The position numbers and the translations under genes were made by a program. Shown here one piece after another: positions 143 to 5,590 of a stretch of DNA of 6,792 bases (the first letter of the stretch is position 1; each line of letters starts with the position of its first letter). Below the pieces are notes generated by a model. It had not been told where the DNA came from, searched no databases, and saw only the letters and a program-made list of their open reading frames with translations. This stretch comes from Nanopusillaceae archaeon (lineage in GTDB: Archaea; Nanobdellota; Nanobdellia; Nanobdellales; Nanobdellaceae): positions 1-6,792 of the forward strand of contig JAVYNJ010000021.1 in assembly GCA_038735675.1 (NCBI GenBank). The letters are read 5' to 3'.

Positions 143-703
143 CTACAAAAAAATCTTTATAAAATTTTTTATATTGTTATAACTTTCTTTGGAATACAAT
201 TTCTTATACTCTTTTAGAAGATTTAATAACTCATTTGAAATATTTATTATTCTTTTATTTATCAAAAATTGAATAAATTGGTTTAAATTTTGAGGTTTCT
301 TAGTTTTTTTAGCTCTTTCCCAATCTATAAAAACAATTCTATTTTCTAATATTATTATATGCTTTTCAGGCCTGTGCATTTCTTCTTTATTAATTTTTAA
401 CTTATCTAAAAGATAGCAAATATCTAAAATTTTTTCGATATATTTTTTAATTTCTTCTTTATTCAAATCTTCTAAAAATTTTCCATTAATATATTCCATT
501 TCTATCCATTTTTCTTTATCGTCCCAAGAAATAATTTTTGGAACAAAGTCATAATTCTTTAATTCTAATAAAAAATTTTTTTCTTTTTCATAATTTTTTT
601 CTAATCCTTTTTTAAATTTTTTAATTATTGTATTTCTTTCTGTTAAAAATATTTCTGCATGCCAACCTTCATCTATCTTTTTCATTTTAAAATTTCTTTT
701 CAC
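143..703 (-). CDS. Small atypical protein-kinase-fold protein (Bud32/RIO-like); candidate KEOPS Bud32 or a related archaeal mini-kinase
   Basis: 186-aa ORF, with an alternative start at M7 (685). The motif order fits a minimal kinase: GWHAEIF...IIKKF (Gly-loop and Lys), WIEMEYINGKFL (hinge), then MHRPEKHIIIL...VFIDWERA where Bud32 has HGDLTTSN...IDFG. It overlaps the upstream endonuclease paralog by 17 nt and lies in the kae1 neighbourhood. Confidence 0.5.
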   Translation of the reverse strand: MKRNFKMKKIDEGWHAEIFLTERNTIIKKFKKGLEKNYEKEKNFLLELKNYDFVPKIISWDDKEKWIEMEYINGKFLEDLNKEEIKKYIEKILDICYLLDKLKINKEEMHRPEKHIIILENRIVFIDWERAKKTKKPQNLNQFIQFLINKRIINISNELLNLLKEYKKLYSKESYNNIKNFIKIFL

Positions 704-1166
704 TTATCTTATAATAAACTATTTTGTATTCAAAATCTATAATTCCCAATAGTAATTCGCAATTTATTTTTTTAGCCTCTTCTAATAAATCTAATATTTT
801 TTTCCAATTTAATATCTCATTTTCAAATACAGGATAAATTAAATAAATTGGTTTGTTTCTAAAACCTCTCTCGTGTAAAATTATTTTTCCATCATAAATA
901 TCAAAATAGTATCCTAAATCTCTAATATCCTTTAAAACTAAATATAGTTTATAATTTATTCTTTCTAAAAATTTTTCTAAAAATTCTCTTTTATTTAATT
1001 TATTTCCATTAAAATCTACCAATCCCCATTCTTTCTCTAAAATATATAATACTTCTTCAGGTTCTAAATATATCTTTTCGTTAATTTTTCCAATTTTTCC
1101 AATAGAATCATAAAATTCTTTTTCTAAATAGAATTTTCCATCAAATTTTATTATAACCTTTTCCAT
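687..1166 (-). CDS. tRNA-splicing endonuclease paralog lacking the catalytic triad (structural/beta subunit)
   Basis: 159-aa ORF. YLEPEEVLYILEKEWGLVDF...YKLYLVLKDIRDLGYYF parallels the EndA N-domain and the Y.VY.DLR..G motif of the neighbouring catalytic subunit. The C-terminal 51 aa align without gaps to the catalytic subunit, but Tyr, His and Lys are replaced: IILHE vs LRVYE, NKP vs EHS, NCE vs RKK. Confidence 0.7.
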   Translation of the reverse strand: MEKVIIKFDGKFYLEKEFYDSIGKIGKINEKIYLEPEEVLYILEKEWGLVDFNGNKLNKREFLEKFLERINYKLYLVLKDIRDLGYYFDIYDGKIILHERGFRNKPIYLIYPVFENEILNWKKILDLLEEAKKINCELLLGIIDFEYKIVYYKISEKKF

Positions 1167-1570
1167 TCTATTTCCAAATATTTAATATTCTTATCTATAA
1201 CAGCCACTAACAATTTTTTTCTAGTACTATGAGCTACCCTATTTTTTGCTAAAAAATCATATAAACTAAAATCTTCATTAATCCTTACTGGAAAGCAAAT
1301 CCATTTAGAATGCTCGTCTGTAGGATTTTCATAAACTCTTAAATTTCCTCCAAATTTTAATCCAGTACCAACAAAATACTTTTTATCTCTTAAATCTTTA
1401 TAAACAGAATATATTTTTTCTAAATTTTTTTCTTTTATTATTTTTTCAAAATTAATTTTTTTACCATAACAATCAAATATTTCGATTTTTCCTTTTTCAG
1501 ATAAATATAAAACTTCTAAAAATGGTAATGAGGTTCCAATAAATATACCATCTTTATATATAACTTTCAT
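1151..1570 (-). CDS. endA: tRNA-splicing endonuclease, catalytic (alpha) subunit
   Basis: I used M66 of the 204-aa track ORF (cat at 1568-1570), giving 139 aa. The upstream 65 codons are antisense to the kae1 start and look like noise. Hallmarks: YSVYKDLRDKKYFVGTGLKFGGNLRVYE (catalytic Tyr), DEHSKWI (His), RVAHSTRKKLLVAVID (Lys). It overlaps the beta gene by 16 nt. Confidence 0.85.
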   Translation of the reverse strand: MKVIYKDGIFIGTSLPFLEVLYLSEKGKIEIFDCYGKKINFEKIIKEKNLEKIYSVYKDLRDKKYFVGTGLKFGGNLRVYENPTDEHSKWICFPVRINEDFSLYDFLAKNRVAHSTRKKLLVAVIDKNIKYLEIEWKRL

Positions 1571-1595
1571 AATATTATTTTTCAAAGAAATATTT

Positions 1596-2789
1596 ATGAT
1601 AAGTTTAGGTATAGAATCTACAGCACATACATTTTCAATAGGAATAGTTGATAAAGAAAGAATATATTCTAATGAAAGAGTAATATATAAAACAGAAAAG
1701 GGAGGAATACATCCAAGAGAAGCTGCAGAATTGCATTCAAAAGAAGCAATAAATATTTTAAACAAGGCAATATGGAAAGCGGGATTTATTTATAAAAAAG
1801 TATATGATAAATATTTGATAGTTGATGTTTTAAGTGAAATAAAAGAAAATTTCCTTTGTGAAGAAAAATTTAATGAAGATCCTTGGAATAGATATAGATA
1901 TGTAATCTTAGAAGGAAAAAAAGTATGGATAGAGAATAATGAAATAAAATCAGAAGATAAAGATTTAGAAAAAAAATTAAATGAATATGTTAAAAATATT
2001 AAAGATTTTAATAAAAAAATAGATTTAATTTCTTTCTCTGCTGGACCTGGTTTATATCCAACATTAGTTCAAGGGAAATTTTTGGCAGATTTATTATCTA
2101 AAAAATTTAATTTAAAAAAAATAGGTGTAAATCATTTAATTGCTCATGTAGAAATTGTAAAATTTTATAATAAATTTAAAGATCCTGTAGTTTTATTAGT
2201 TACTGGCGCAAATACAATGATTTTAGCATTAGAAGGAAATAAATATAGAATTTTTGGAGAAACTTTAGATATAGGTGTCGGAAATTTTTTAGATAAAGTT
2301 GGGAGATTGTTAGGATTAGGATTTCCCGCAGGACCAAAAATTGAAGAAATTGCAAAAAATGGAAAAAATTTGATTAAATTACCATATACAGTTAAAGGCA
2401 TGGATATACAATTAGGTGGTTTATATACTTATATTAAAAAAATATTAGAAGAAAAAAAGTATTCTATAGAAGATATTGCATATTCTATTCAAGAATATGT
2501 TTTTTCTATGCTGGCAGAAATATCTGAAAGAGCAATTGCTCATTTAAATAAAAAAGAATTTGGTTTGACTGGGGGAGTAGCTGTAAATAAGAGGTTACAA
2601 GAAATTTTACAAAAGATGTGTGAAGAAAGAAACATAAAATTTGGAACAGTTCCTATAGATTTGGGAAATGATAATGGAGCAATGATTGCATATACTGGAT
2701 TGTTATGGTATGAAAAGGGAATTCAGGGGAAAGAAGATATAGACCCGTACTGGAGACCAGAGACAGTAGAATATACATTAAAAAAGTAA
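1596..2789 (+). CDS. kae1: Kae1 (tRNA N6-adenosine threonylcarbamoyltransferase, KEOPS catalytic subunit) with a lineage-specific internal insertion
   Basis: 397-aa ORF. GIESTAHTF, IHPREAAELH, SFSAGPGL, VNHLIAHVE (HxxxH metal site, 2133-2147), FGETLDIGVGNFLDK, YTVKGMD, LTGGVAVN, GNDNGAMIA and WRPETVEY are collinear with archaeal Kae1, as I recall the M. jannaschii sequence. Confidence 0.92.
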   Translation: MISLGIESTAHTFSIGIVDKERIYSNERVIYKTEKGGIHPREAAELHSKEAINILNKAIWKAGFIYKKVYDKYLIVDVLSEIKENFLCEEKFNEDPWNRYRYVILEGKKVWIENNEIKSEDKDLEKKLNEYVKNIKDFNKKIDLISFSAGPGLYPTLVQGKFLADLLSKKFNLKKIGVNHLIAHVEIVKFYNKFKDPVVLLVTGANTMILALEGNKYRIFGETLDIGVGNFLDKVGRLLGLGFPAGPKIEEIAKNGKNLIKLPYTVKGMDIQLGGLYTYIKKILEEKKYSIEDIAYSIQEYVFSMLAEISERAIAHLNKKEFGLTGGVAVNKRLQEILQKMCEERNIKFGTVPIDLGNDNGAMIAYTGLLWYEKGIQGKEDIDPYWRPETVEYTLKK

Positions 2790-3663
2790 TTATTGGTAAT
2801 ATTAAATTATCATCAATTTTTCTTATAAAATATTCTGATATAGAAACAACAATAGCAATTATTGGATTTGTTCTTGTTGCAAGTACAGAAATAATTCCAC
2901 CGATAAATCCGCCAAATAAGCCATAAATGCTTTTTTTATCTTCATTATTGAATAATTTTCCAAAAGTAGAAGATAGCCCATCTATCCAAGCTAAATAAAT
3001 TGGAATGAAATAAGGATTTATATCTAATGCATATGAAATAAGACTGGTAGAAAAAATACCTAAAACAAAAGTAAAAGCTTCATAACCTGTCGAATCTTTG
3101 CTATAATTTTGTAGAAACATTTTTATAAAGAAGAAATCTTTTAACAAATAGAGTATTACTCCAAATAATAATAAAAAAATCATAAATAAAAGTCCTAAAA
3201 AAGGATATAAAAATAATATATATCCTATCAAGCTTCCAAGCCCAATATGTATTACTTTTCTATGTATAAACCTCTCTAATCTTTTTTCCAATTTATTAAA
3301 AATAATAATAAAAAATATTGAAAAAATGTATCCAAACAAAACTTGAAATATATCATGTACTCCTGCTAAAATTCTAAAACTACCTATTATTAAAGAGTAT
3401 ACAAGAAATAAAAATTTGTATTTTATATTATCATAAACAAAAAATGGAATAATTGAGAGCGAGGCATGAGTACTTGGAAAAGAAAAAGGATCTATATAAG
3501 GTCTCTCTATTCTAAATATTAATTTAAGAGTTAAATTTGTTCCTAAAATCAGAAAAAAATATGAAAAATATTTTCTAACTTTATTTTCATCTTTCTTAAT
3601 TAATTTTATTAAGGCATCAACCGGAATTAATAATAAAAGAATAGTTGAAATTAAATCAAACAT
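2653..3663 (-). CDS. Polytopic membrane protein: N-terminal PAP2-type (polyprenyl-di)phosphate phosphatase fused to a C-terminal CTP-dependent polyprenol/dolichol kinase-like domain
   Basis: 336 aa. PAP2 motifs: KLIFRIERP (Kx6RP, 3499-3525), PSTH (3466-3477) and FRILAGVHD (3352-3381). From about aa 133 come dolichol/phytol-kinase (COG0170, CTP_transf_1 superfamily) hallmarks: RKVIHIG, WIDGLSSTFGKLF, KKSIYGLFGGF, IDDNLILPI. It is hydrophobic throughout. The last ~45 codons are antisense to the kae1 3' end. Confidence 0.7.
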   Translation of the reverse strand: MFDLISTILLLLIPVDALIKLIKKDENKVRKYFSYFFLILGTNLTLKLIFRIERPYIDPFSFPSTHASLSIIPFFVYDNIKYKFLFLVYSLIIGSFRILAGVHDIFQVLFGYIFSIFFIIIFNKLEKRLERFIHRKVIHIGLGSLIGYILFLYPFLGLLFMIFLLLFGVILYLLKDFFFIKMFLQNYSKDSTGYEAFTFVLGIFSTSLISYALDINPYFIPIYLAWIDGLSSTFGKLFNNEDKKSIYGLFGGFIGGIISVLATRTNPIIAIVVSISEYFIRKIDDNLILPIITFLMYILLSLVSSTGLYLLSPEFPFHTITIQYMQSLLHYHFPNL

Positions 3664-3710: not shown

Positions 3711-3842
3711 ATGATGTCTCTTGAAAAGGTCTTTGAATTAATAAAGTTAAGGAGTTTAGCTGGACAAAAAATTTTGAGTGGTAACGTAAAAGCTATAAGA
3801 AATTTGAGGAAAGAAATGGCTAAAGAAAAGGCAAAAAGATGA
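3711..3842 (+). CDS. rpl29: 43-aa uL29-like protein (short ribosomal protein L29 homolog)
   Basis: Not in the ORF track. ATG ATG at 3711 gives MMSLEKVFELIKLRSLAGQKILSGNVKAIRNLRKEMAKEKAKR. The stop TGA (3840-3842) overlaps the SUI1 ATG (3839-3841) as ATGA. LR..AGQ-x9-IR..RK..AK resembles the L29 core (E. coli, from memory: [28 protein letters not shown]). L29 - SUI1 - Rpp29 is the conserved archaeal gene order. Confidence 0.5.
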   Translation: MMSLEKVFELIKLRSLAGQKILSGNVKAIRNLRKEMAKEKAKR

Positions 3843-4420: not shown

Positions 4421-4432
4421 GTTAATTATGTC

Positions 4433-4506
4433 TGGGGCGGGAGGGATTTGAACCCTCGACCCTCCGGTCTTCAGCCGGATGCTCTCCCGGGCTGAGCTAC
4501 CGCCCC
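4433..4506 (-). tRNA. tRNA-Phe (anticodon GAA), no intron, CCA not encoded
   Basis: Hand-folded reverse complement: GGGGCGG TA GCTC AGCCCGGGA GAGC A TCCGG CTGAAGA CCGGA GGGTC GAGGG TTCAAAT CCCTC CCGCCCC A. All stems are Watson-Crick, with U33, GG in the D-loop, TTCAAAT T-loop and discriminator A. Total 74 nt. Confidence 0.9.
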
Positions 4507-4554
4507 AAGATATATCTTAGAATTCTTATTAATTATTTCTTTAAATTCTTTAAG

Positions 4555-4562
4555 TTTATAAA
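4555..4562 (+). promoter_or_regulatory. TATA-box candidate for the AbiEii-like gene (leaderless transcript)
   Basis: tttataaa lies 24-31 nt upstream of ATG 4586 and is close to the archaeal TTTAWATA consensus. There is no Shine-Dalgarno-like element. Confidence 0.4.
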
Positions 4563-4585
4563 TTGTAACCACTAATAAATAGTAA

Positions 4586-5254
4586 ATGAGAGAGTATAAT
4601 ATATGGCAATCTAGTACAAGATCTATCTTAGAATATATAATCAAAGAAATACTCTATGAAATACCTTATTCAATTAGCGGAGGATTTGCAGTTCAAATAT
4701 ATTCTTATGTTAATAAAGATAAATCTTTTAGAAGAAATACAAAAGATATAGATATTTTGGTTTTGCGTGAATATAAAGAAAAGCTATTAGATATTTTAAA
4801 AGATAAAAAAATTTATTATAAACTACAAAAAAGCGTTGTCAGAGATTCTTTAGATATAATTATGGAAAAAGGACCAAAAATTTCTATATCTTTTGTGGAT
4901 AATTTACCTAACTATGAAAAATTGAATATAAACAAAATAACAGTAAATGTAGAAAATTTAGAGAGTTTATTAGTAAATAAATTTTCAACATATAATTTTA
5001 GAACAGTTGATAAAGATATTACAGATTTATGTCAAGTGATTAAATTATTAAAGAAAAAAGAAGTGAATATGGATGAAATTATTGGAGCTATGAAAAGATA
5101 TAACATAGTTGAAGATGCTGAAAAAATGTTTTTTGTATTTTTAGAATTAAATGGTTTAATTAAATCTCCAGAAAAATATGTAGATATAGATGCTGAAGAA
5201 AAAAATAATTTTTCTTATTATTTAAAATCTAAGAAACTTATATGTAAAGAATAA
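4586..5254 (+). CDS. AbiEii/AbiGii-family (DUF1814) nucleotidyltransferase, toxin-type, with no cognate AbiEi-like partner in view
   Basis: 222 aa. SGGFAVQIYSYVNKDKSFRRNTKDIDILV (4679-4753) fits the GG[TS]AL...R.T.D[IL]D[FL] NTase motif. VENLESLLVNKFSTYNFRTVDKDITDLCQVIKL (4979-5029 core) fits the family's E.l.aeK..A...R....kD.yDl motif. Its AT-rich composition matches the rest of the window. Confidence 0.65.
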   Translation: MREYNIWQSSTRSILEYIIKEILYEIPYSISGGFAVQIYSYVNKDKSFRRNTKDIDILVLREYKEKLLDILKDKKIYYKLQKSVVRDSLDIIMEKGPKISISFVDNLPNYEKLNINKITVNVENLESLLVNKFSTYNFRTVDKDITDLCQVIKLLKKKEVNMDEIIGAMKRYNIVEDAEKMFFVFLELNGLIKSPEKYVDIDAEEKNNFSYYLKSKKLICKE

Positions 5255-5266
5255 TAAAAATATATG

Positions 5267-5341
5267 GCCCCCGTAGTGTAGCTAGGACGACATTCCGGGC
5301 CTCGGTCCCGGAGATCCGGGGTTCGAATCCCCGCGGGGGCA
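5267..5341 (+). tRNA. tRNA-Arg (anticodon UCG) with C at position 33; no intron, CCA not encoded
   Basis: Hand fold: GCCCCCG TA GTGT AGCTAGGACG ACAT T CCGGG CCTCGGT CCCGG AGATC CGGGG TTCGAAT CCCCG CGGGGGC A (75 nt). The only 7-nt anticodon loop is CCUCGGU, so 34-36 is UCG with G37. There is a G10-U25 wobble. Confidence 0.8.
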
Positions 5342-5407: not shown

Positions 5408-5590
5408 ATGAAGAAAAACAATAGAGAATATCGTAAAAACCTATTAAAAAAATTAAAGGCCAATAATTATCCTAAAGAAAGAATATTAACAAATATTAAT
5501 TTTTTTTATAAAACATATAGGGAGTGTCAGCGTGTATTTTTATACTATGCTAGGGTGAAAGTAATTAAAGTAAGAATTTATAATTTTTGA
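5408..5590 (+). CDS. Hypothetical very basic 60-aa ORF (doubtful)
   Basis: The only support is an open frame: MKKNNREYRKNLLKKLKANNYPKERIL.... I recognise no motif. Its 3' end contains the best TATA candidate for hsdM. Confidence 0.15.
   Translation: MKKNNREYRKNLLKKLKANNYPKERILTNINFFYKTYRECQRVFLYYARVKVIKVRIYNF
5577..5584 (+). promoter_or_regulatory. TATA-box candidate for hsdM
   Basis: tttataat lies 26-33 nt upstream of ATG 5610, consistent with a leaderless or very short-leader transcript. Confidence 0.35.

Follow-up and report, generated by a model that had tools for sequence, protein, structure and literature searches.

How does a nucleotidyltransferase (NTase) from a superfamily of toxins come to stand alone between two tRNA genes in a nanoarchaeal genome? 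To our knowledge, all DUF1814 NTases of known function (AbiEii, MenT1, MenT3 and MenT4) are toxins of two-gene modules. In a Nanopusillaceae archaeon (GenBank assembly GCA_038735675.1, contig JAVYNJ010000021.1), a stretch of 6,792 nucleotides (nt), hereafter the window, contains an open reading frame (ORF) of 222 amino acids (aa) between a tRNA-Phe gene on the opposite strand and a tRNA-Arg gene. An initial annotation, made from the sequence, had described this layout and read the ORF as a solitary AbiEii-type NTase; the layout itself was borne out by ORF calling, ARAGORN and Rfam. Our analysis indicates that the ORF almost certainly encodes a DUF1814-superfamily NTase with an intact active site, and that this enzyme very probably has no cis-encoded antitoxin. 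The antitoxin-less state extends beyond this locus and is a trait of a whole small archaeal subfamily.

Since the score of the single sequence is below threshold, family membership had to be established from profile and fold evidence. With the query sequence alone, the Pfam AbiEii family (PF08843) gives 17 bits (E 0.006) against a cutoff of 22.5, covering only aa 98–174, and the PADLOC AbiEii model gives an E of 0.0096; an NCBIfam search with the single sequence returned only noise, and phmmer against the Protein Data Bank (PDB) found zero matches. When 1.84 billion cluster representatives were searched exhaustively with HMMER, just 16 came out as relatives at E <1e-3. The subfamily is therefore very small, and every context that can be read looks archaeal. 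An alignment and profile of 17 family sequences with 22–55% identity (A3) matches 5uvd (1.4e-8) and MenT1 (8an4, 1e-7) in the PDB over profile positions 13–173, and hhalign of A3 with a MenT1 fragment gives a probability of 90% (E 1.4e-6, 142 columns). PF08843 is matched by 14 of the 17 members (best E 1.3e-10). Weak matches to Pfam Aminoglyc_resit were also seen, at E 0.024 for the query and in 4 of the 17 members (best 0.0014), and A3 aligns to LnuA only in the N-terminal core (E 0.058). Because members also match DUF6036 (PF19502; 10/17), NTP_transf_5 (PF14907; 7/17) and DUF2204 (PF09970; 4/17), the subfamily sits between several named, uncharacterised NTase families; the query itself has no match to these three at E ≤0.1. 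Among the BFVD viral structures, only generic NTase or poly(A)-polymerase folds were found.

The active site is complete. All four DUF1814 motifs (hGG; Arg + DxD; K-x6-R; +DxxD) can be found in the query. These motifs were defined by Dy et al. 2014, and mutating them abolishes AbiEii toxicity (PMC3985639). Motifs I and II read I30-S-G32-G33 and R50-N-T-K-D54-I-D56, with a spacer of 20 residues, motif III reads K132-FSTYNF-R139 and motif IV K143-D144-I-T-D147. Seven of these residues (G32, G33, R50, D54, D56, K132 and D147) are invariant in 17/17 members of A3, so that the Asp pair of the DID at aa 54–56, singled out in the initial annotation, is intact. K143 is retained in 15/17 members, D144 in 14/17 and R139 in 12/17, and position 105 is acidic in 13/17. 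The presence of both DUF1814 signature regions thus held at the level of motifs, but not at that of the sub-threshold, partial single-sequence Pfam match.

Aligned with MenT1, the query residues T52, D54, K132, D144 and D147 correspond to T39, D41, K137, D149 and D152. In MenT1, D41, K137 and D152 are needed for NTase activity and D149 is a predicted nucleotide contact, while T39 is the auto-phosphorylation site that inactivates the toxin, its replacement in T39A only lowering activity; a Ser/Thr phospho-acceptor two residues ahead of the first catalytic Asp is shared by MenT1 (T39) and MenT3 (S78) (PMC11375011). The query carries T52 as the putative equivalent of this phospho-acceptor, and position 52 is T in 15/17 members and S in the other two.

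The predicted fold points in the same direction. An AlphaFold2 (AF2) model built from 10 sequences has a predicted local distance difference test score (pLDDT) of 92 and a predicted template modelling (TM) score of 0.88. It is predicted to be two-lobed, as in MenT1, with an N-terminal pol-beta-like alpha/beta NTase core and a C-terminal helical lobe, so that the helical domain raised in the initial annotation appears to be present. Its best Foldseek match in the PDB is MenT1 8an4 (E 5.7e-6), with a moderate TM of 0.53/0.59; JHP933, 5uvd, LnuA, ANT(2'')-Ia, TM1012 and TglT/MenT3 follow. The label AbiEii-type was hence right for the superfamily, but the nearest characterised relative is the short Mycobacterium tuberculosis toxin MenT1 and not AbiEii proper. 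Since TM-scores are moderate and identity is 17–22%, the query is a distant MenT1-like member and not a MenT1 ortholog. MenT1 has ~196 aa, so a protein of 222 aa, which the initial annotation had placed at the short end, is not unusually short for the family.

If the NTase had a conserved partner gene, it should recur among relatives. None does: no adjacent partner gene is shared across nine independent contexts (window/L002–L006, L001, L009, L010, L018, L025/26, L007/8, L021/22 and L023/24), which bears out the claim that an adjacent antitoxin gene is lacking and answers the survey for a conserved partner that the initial annotation had proposed. Besides the NTase, ORFs of at least 20 aa between tRNA-Phe and tRNA-Arg are only spurious overlaps, leaving no partner candidate, and no AbiEi/COG5340-like gene was seen in the contexts read around subfamily members. 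An Rfam scan of the window (E ≤0.1) returned the two tRNAs and two chance matches, and therefore no known RNA antitoxin or small RNA.

The neighbours vary widely, and include tRNAs, Translin, a DUF4143 ATPase, a lipoprotein-like ORF, CTP synthase, DUF123 and RuBisCO. Seven contigs of the same species (L002–L006, L019, L020; 97–100% protein identity, 98.8–99.8% nucleotide identity over the shared region) hold the same tRNA-Phe/NTase/tRNA-Arg block. In L010 (52% identical), tRNA-Phe(-), NTase and tRNA-Arg(+) are surrounded by unrelated genes. The order NTase, tRNA-Arg, Translin is found in L001 and L009 (50% and 47%), and in L018 and L001 (49–50%) tRNA-Phe is separated from the NTase by an AAA_14/DUF4143 ATPase of 419 aa. 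In L025/L026 (P0008, 30%), the flanking genes are on the opposite strand and tRNA-Arg(UCG) follows 79 nt 3'. More distantly, P0016 and P0017 (L007/L008 and L021/L022; 27%, with a range of 27–30% across alignments) have a lipoprotein-like or DUF123 gene upstream, and downstream a CTP synthase or unknown ORF and then ribonucleotide reductase, while P0018 (L023/L024, 25%) has DUF192 upstream and a form III-like RuBisCO downstream.

Three candidate partners were considered and rejected. The 60-aa ORF downstream of tRNA-Arg is part of a strain-variable segment; L003/L004 lack it, as do L001 and L009, the orthologous loci read. The DUF4143 ATPase occurs only in L001 and L018, and is absent from the window, L009, L010 and L025. 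The 135-aa ORF upstream of P0016 resembles a lipoprotein, signal peptide included, and its conservation does not extend to L021. Of the four clade-2 loci, two have the ATPase (L018 703–1962; L001 1–111), which lies 41 nt 5' of the NTase ATG, and a similar ATPase is found in L007, 3.5 kb upstream of its distant relative. The ATPase is probably a mobile or defence-type insertion and not a partner. At the family edge, contexts of the toxin–antitoxin (TA) type reappear: the marginal relative P0025 (L012 2271–3673; profile match 5e-11) belongs to a TA island of bacterial appearance that holds MazE-PIN and RelE-HTH pairs; an 88-aa ORF without a Pfam match follows 12 nt 3', and after it comes a second ORF whose DUF1814 N-terminus is GGTAL-type.

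The gene also appears to have a promoter of its own. The 8-mer TTTATAAA occurs seven times in the window against three expected, which alone is not significant; in 7 of 11 related loci, L007 and L021 among them, it precedes the ATG by 29–31 nt, with TTTTTAAA at that place in an eighth (L025), and TTTATAAATT is invariant in the window, L001, L009, L010 and L018. The region upstream of the NTase is conserved more strongly than the coding sequence. The centre of an archaeal TATA box lies ~26–27 nt 5' of the transcription start, so that an element 29–31 nt ahead of the ATG would place the start at or next to the ATG and yield a leaderless monocistronic mRNA. A leaderless, single-gene transcript from its own promoter is thus predicted, as had been proposed for the TATA box of the window, whose position is conserved across clades.

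Downstream, the NTase gene is linked to tRNA-Arg(UCG). The conservation of this adjacency had escaped the initial annotation, as had the likely tRNA-Arg promoter in the last codons of the ORF. This tRNA gene lies directly 3' of the NTase in three clades (window; L001/L009/L010; L025/L026), down to 30% protein identity, and a divergent tRNA-Phe is likewise seen in L010 and L018. By tblastx, the NTase and the tRNAs are the sole features common to the window and L001, L009, L010, L018 and L025. The gap from stop codon to tRNA-Arg is 12 nt in the window, 8 nt in L009 and L010 and 79 nt in L025/26, and in L001 the tRNA overlaps the called ORF. A TTATA(T/A) element precedes tRNA-Arg by 24–29 nt in the window, L001 (790–840), L009 and L010, inside the last NTase codons. 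Judging from these sequence elements, the 3' end of the NTase gene likely contains the tRNA-Arg promoter, with the C-terminal codons and the tRNA promoter overlapping. Rearrangements at such a junction would harm the tRNA gene, which is the simplest reading of the adjacency. For P0016, P0017, P0018 and P0019, no tRNA was present in the contig sequence read, up to 5–6 kb on each side where available. Two single-base differences were noted in the tRNA-Arg gene: window position 5325, in the T-loop region, is G (TTCGAAT) where six other strain contigs compared have A (TTCAAAT), and the acceptor stem in L003 shows a G-to-T difference at 5336.

The initial annotation had joined the NTase to the type I restriction-modification (R-M) gene of the window as one defence-type locus, a grouping that does not hold. 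Strains that are 99.4–99.7% identical over the shared region part ways right after tRNA-Arg: the window and L002 continue into the 60-aa ORF and the methylase gene HsdM, L003 (7694–7725) and L004 (5658–5678) into another tRNA-like sequence. Three of seven assemblies (L004–L006) end at or within ~30 nt of the tRNA-Arg 3' end, L003 and L019 end soon past the divergence, and at orthologous loci Translin or other genes take the place of HsdM. GC content is ~22% in the window outside the tRNAs and rises from 0.22 to 0.29–0.36 in the segment 3' of tRNA-Arg. Because of this divergence, the assembly ends and the GC rise, the R-M gene is regarded as a strain-variable insertion at a tRNA hotspot that forms no unit with the NTase, and the segment after tRNA-Arg looks like a hotspot of integration or variation. 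Within the window, no tRNA-Arg fragments were found as direct repeats, the mark expected of an integrated element. At the block's opposite flank, clade-2 loci carry a DUF3368 (PIN-like) ORF upstream of tRNA-Phe (L010 5–193; L018 101–406), and in L010 three small minus-strand ORFs, two of them apparently membrane-embedded by eye, lie between this ORF and tRNA-Phe as a second variable junction.

Selection on the NTase is purifying, and the gene is no relic. The ratio of nonsynonymous to synonymous substitution rates (dN/dS) over the whole protein is 0.12–0.27 among orthologs 71–77% identical, and 0.3–0.5 against the window clade, where dS is near saturation. The reading frame is intact in every copy, and none of the differences between strains falls on a motif residue. 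No relatives were found among IMG/VR viral contigs, PLSDB plasmids or INPHARED phages. The NTase acts as a vertically inherited chromosomal gene, unlike a mobile TA or abortive-infection (Abi) cassette, and conserved synteny, purifying selection and the lack of relatives on mobile elements lead us to lean towards a vertically kept cellular gene. A metagenome scan added one ortholog, L018. In a scan of GTDB, sequences from Candidate Phyla Radiation (CPR)/Patescibacteria (L013–L017) resembled only the N-terminal NTase motif region, over 35–76 aa at 36–47% identity; they are possibly small NTases of related type from a further group of symbionts with reduced genomes.

The explanation we favour, by a modest degree of confidence and by analogy with characterised relatives, is that the NTase is a vertically kept, antitoxin-less MenT/AbiEii variant that probably tails the 3' ends of RNA, perhaps tRNA. 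In such an enzyme, D54 and D56 would hold Mg2+, to which the acidic residue at position 105 may contribute, and R50, K132, R139, D144 and D147 would bind a nucleoside triphosphate, probably a pyrimidine one by analogy with MenT1, MenT3 and AbiEii. A nucleoside monophosphate would then be moved onto an RNA 3'-OH, by homology most plausibly at tRNA acceptor ends, and activity without an antitoxin could be limited by low intrinsic activity, by auto-phosphorylation at T52 or by a factor acting in trans. MenT1 adds CMP to tRNA 3'-CCA ends (PMC10435456). Specificity for pyrimidines has been described for the tRNA NTases AbiEii and MenT3 (bioRxiv 10.64898/2026.01.19.700257; PMC11162799). An RNA or tRNA 3' end as the actual substrate is a tentative assignment, to which we give somewhat less than even chances. 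As for its use, a cellular or domesticated role and a single-gene role in growth arrest or defence are nearly in balance, and we lean to the former because of the conserved synteny, the housekeeping-gene contexts of distant members and the lack of mobile relatives.

Several observations weigh against this explanation. Toxin homology, the enrichment of AbiE in DPANN archaea (PMC12988326), the hotspot context, with its R-M, PIN-like and ATPase genes, and the patchy distribution all favour a defence-type role. Among near-identical strains, nonsynonymous to synonymous changes in the NTase number 7:3 and 5:4, against 2:8 in SUI1 and Rpp29; although counts are small, selection holds the NTase less tightly than the housekeeping genes next to it, as one would expect of defence genes. 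With its 16 representatives, the family is rare and patchily distributed, and no window-type gene came out of a pattern scan of the GTDB species representatives, with the fragmentation of DPANN metagenome-assembled genomes (MAGs) as a caveat; a gene so rare is hard to reconcile with a core housekeeping role. The sole grounds for tRNA targeting are the ~17–22% identity and fold similarity to MenT1, and the small-molecule NTases LnuA, ANT(2'')-Ia and TM1012 reach similar TM-scores. Finally, the contexts read are short contigs, and a trans-encoded AbiEi or MenA-like regulator is compatible with the data; MenA1 is functional with only ~32 aa (PMC10435456), which means that a regulator of very small size, encoded elsewhere, could easily be overlooked.

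The strongest rival, which we nevertheless consider unlikely, is an orphan toxin of a classical MenAT/AbiE-type TA or abortive-infection system, whose antitoxin comes from another part of the genome or is a tiny unannotated peptide or RNA, and which blocks translation on attack by a phage or virus. The homology to MenT1 and AbiEii, the retention of all toxicity-critical residues and the DPANN enrichment of AbiE (PMC12988326) would fit such a toxin, as would the conservation of T52, whose equivalent is used in antitoxin-induced auto-phosphorylation of MenT1, MenT3 and AbiEii (PMC11375011; bioRxiv 10.64898/2026.01.19.700257). So would the variable, defence-rich locus, the elevated nonsynonymous to synonymous ratio among strains and the TA island of P0025 with its 88-aa ORF. 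TA partners are nearly always adjacent, however, and no partner gene adjoins the NTase in any of the nine contexts. A conserved promoter right before each ATG also speaks against an orphan toxin, and both long retention at one place under purifying selection and the lack of mobile-element relatives are atypical of TA cassettes.

It is improbable, in our estimate, that the NTase is functionally paired with tRNA-Arg(UCG), the enzyme tailing, repairing or marking this tRNA specifically, or the tRNA serving as a substrate decoy or dosage control. The adjacency is held in three clades to 30% identity with all other flanks differing, the spacer is just 8–12 nt in two of them, and MenT-type enzymes target tRNA acceptor ends, with MenT3 reported to prefer particular tRNAs (PMC11541572). 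Shared ancestry, however, reduces the three clades to one ancestral arrangement, the contigs of P0016 to P0019 lack a tRNA in the sequence read, and the candidate TATA element in the last NTase codons is a simpler explanation, since changes at the junction would damage an essential tRNA gene. A bolder version, which we hold to be just as improbable, is that, within the ultra-small genomes of DPANN archaea, a lineage of MenT/AbiEii-type NTases became a stand-alone enzyme genetically coupled to tRNA-Arg(UCG) through the overlapping promoter and coding end, possibly co-transcribed with it, which tails, marks or repairs that tRNA or tRNA 3' ends as an antitoxin-free translation throttle controlled by T52 auto-phosphorylation. 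If true, the two genes would be a protein–tRNA gene module instead of a protein–protein TA pair.

Slightly less probable still is a small-molecule NTase, an aminoglycoside/lincosamide-type enzyme that modifies antibiotics or metabolites. LnuA, ANT(2'')-Ia and TM1012 have target-normalised TM-scores of 0.60–0.65 in Foldseek, and weak Aminoglyc_resit matches exist, yet query-normalised TM is no better than for MenT1 and the sequence matches are limited to the generic N-terminal NTase half (aa 14–86, E 0.024–0.058). The C-terminal half, by contrast, bears the DUF1814-specific motifs III and IV and aligns to MenT1 and 5uvd, and AbiEii is the Pfam family matched by most members. Last, the reading of the ORF as the decaying leftover of a TA module, or as a spurious AT-rich ORF retained solely for the tRNA-Arg promoter, could draw on the sub-threshold Pfam score, the candidate tRNA promoter within the ORF 3' end and the relaxed constraint among close strains, but is close to refuted by the intact frame in every copy, catalytic residues invariant over 17 members at 22–55% identity, dN/dS of 0.12–0.27 along the whole protein, a confident AF2 model and the conserved promoter.

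The features of the locus are collected in Table 1. The spacer between tRNA-Phe and the NTase, previously put at 79 nt, measures 78 nt.

Table 1 Features of the NTase locus in window coordinates
Feature	Position	Strand	Remarks
tRNA-Phe(GAA)	4432–4507	-	ARAGORN; Rfam RF00005, 70 bits; divergent from the NTase gene
Spacer, 78 nt	4508–4585		Must house the promoters of both divergent genes, tRNA-Phe and NTase
Predicted TATA box TTTATAAA	4555–4562	+	31 nt 5' of the ATG; leaderless geometry
DUF1814-superfamily (MenT1/AbiEii-like) NTase gene	4586–5254	+	222 aa; ATG start, TAA stop
Motifs I and II: G32-G33 ... R50, T52, D54-I-D56	4679–4753	+	17-member alignment; MenT1 mapping
Motifs III and IV: K132-x6-R139, K143-D144-I-T-D147 (+DxxD)	4979–5026	+	Alignment with MenT1
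TTATAT, candidate TATA element of tRNA-Arg	5238–5243	+	Within the final NTase codons, 29 nt ahead of the tRNA 5' end
tRNA-Arg(UCG)	5267–5341	+	ARAGORN; Rfam, 53 bits; 12 nt past the NTase stop
Strain-variable segment	5342–6792	+	60-aa ORF and part of HsdM; outside the NTase unit
60-aa ORF	5408–5590		In the strain-variable segment
Type I R-M methylase HsdM, N-terminal 394 aa	5610 to window end		HsdM_N and N6_Mtase; runs off the window

The other genes of the window are archaeal informational genes (two tRNA-splicing endonuclease subunits, Kae1/TsaD, SUI1/aIF1 and RNase P subunit p29) and one for a PAP2-like membrane protein. Identical or near-identical copies of the NTase are labelled 'hypothetical protein' in Nanopusillaceae archaeon MAGs and in one 'Aenigmatarchaeota' MAG, which marks the source as a symbiont of the DPANN/Nanoarchaeota type. 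The tRNA-intron endonuclease genes lie side by side at 687–1765 (-), one catalytic (tRNA_int_endo, 3.7e-22) and one degenerate with weak matches only, a pair that presumably resembles the heterotetrameric alpha2-beta2 enzyme type; the 204-aa endonuclease ORF with a TTG start is probably over-extended, as MAG annotations give 139 aa. Kae1/TsaD (1596–2789) has 397 aa, of which aa 140–366 align to TsaD model positions 49–264, with ~80 extra residues ahead of the TsaD-matching part, and the 3' end of its gene overlaps the convergent PAP2-like gene (2653–3663) by 137 nt. A Bud32-type kinase is the KEOPS partner of Kae1, and a 186-aa ORF (143–703, -) that adjoins the endonuclease genes near Kae1 is, by eye, a minimal candidate for such a kinase; Pfam gives it no match even at E ≤1. 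A conserved 43-aa ORF (MMSLEKVFELIKLRSLAGQKILSGNVKAIRNLRKEMAKEKAKR; 3711–3842, +) overlaps the SUI1 start by 4 nt and is present in all MAG annotations, with no family.

The protein kind is already known; what is new is a coherent archaeal subfamily with full catalytic and regulatory residues, an antitoxin that was lost or never had, a leaderless-type promoter and a tRNA-locked position. The current unifying model for DUF1814 toxins is antitoxin-induced auto-phosphorylation, and the subfamily therefore poses the questions of whether a DUF1814 enzyme can be controlled without an antitoxin and whether it has a non-toxic RNA-end function. That purifying selection has retained the NTase in genomes that rank among the smallest known for cells suggests that the use or control of this family may differ from what has been studied, and adds to the view of compact single-gene systems retained by DPANN archaea. 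Standard defence finders would probably miss the gene, since its PADLOC and Pfam AbiEii scores are marginal and it has no AbiEi partner. The candidate tRNA-Arg promoter embedded in its 3' end would be a concrete example of how a non-essential gene becomes fixed in place.

Among known systems, MenT1 (Rv0078A of MenAT1, M. tuberculosis; PDB 8an4/8an5) is the best PDB match by fold and the second best by profile. Both proteins are compact (~200 aa) and share a K-to-D spacing of 15, but identity is only ~17–22% and TM only 0.53–0.59. The MenT1 module includes the 68-aa antitoxin MenA1, which has no counterpart at the query locus or at any relative's locus read, and the query has an extra C-terminal helical tail (aa ~176–222); it is also archaeal, vertically inherited and known from sequence and model only. 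AbiEii (AbiE, Streptococcus agalactiae; PF08843, COG2253) shares the four motifs hGG, R-x3-DxD, K-x6-R and +DxxD (PMC3985639), with ~15–16 residues between motifs I and II compared with 20 in the query. It has ~290 aa and forms a bicistronic operon with AbiEi (COG5340), whereas the query, at ~220 aa, has no such partner or operon and falls below the Pfam AbiEii gathering threshold that most subfamily members pass. DUF6036, NTP_transf_5 and DUF2204 are uncharacterised prokaryotic NTases matched by subfamily members but not by the query. JHP933 (Helicobacter pylori, PDB 4o8s/4ok0) is among the top fold matches, as is 5uvd, an antigenic NTase-like protein of Paracoccidioides brasiliensis and the best PDB profile match (1.4e-8); both come from other domains of life, superpose more weakly (TM 0.42–0.49) and, being uncharacterised, offer no mechanistic lead. 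Judging by its PDB title, 5uvd nonetheless places a DUF1814-like NTase in a eukaryote, outside the bacterial operon setting.

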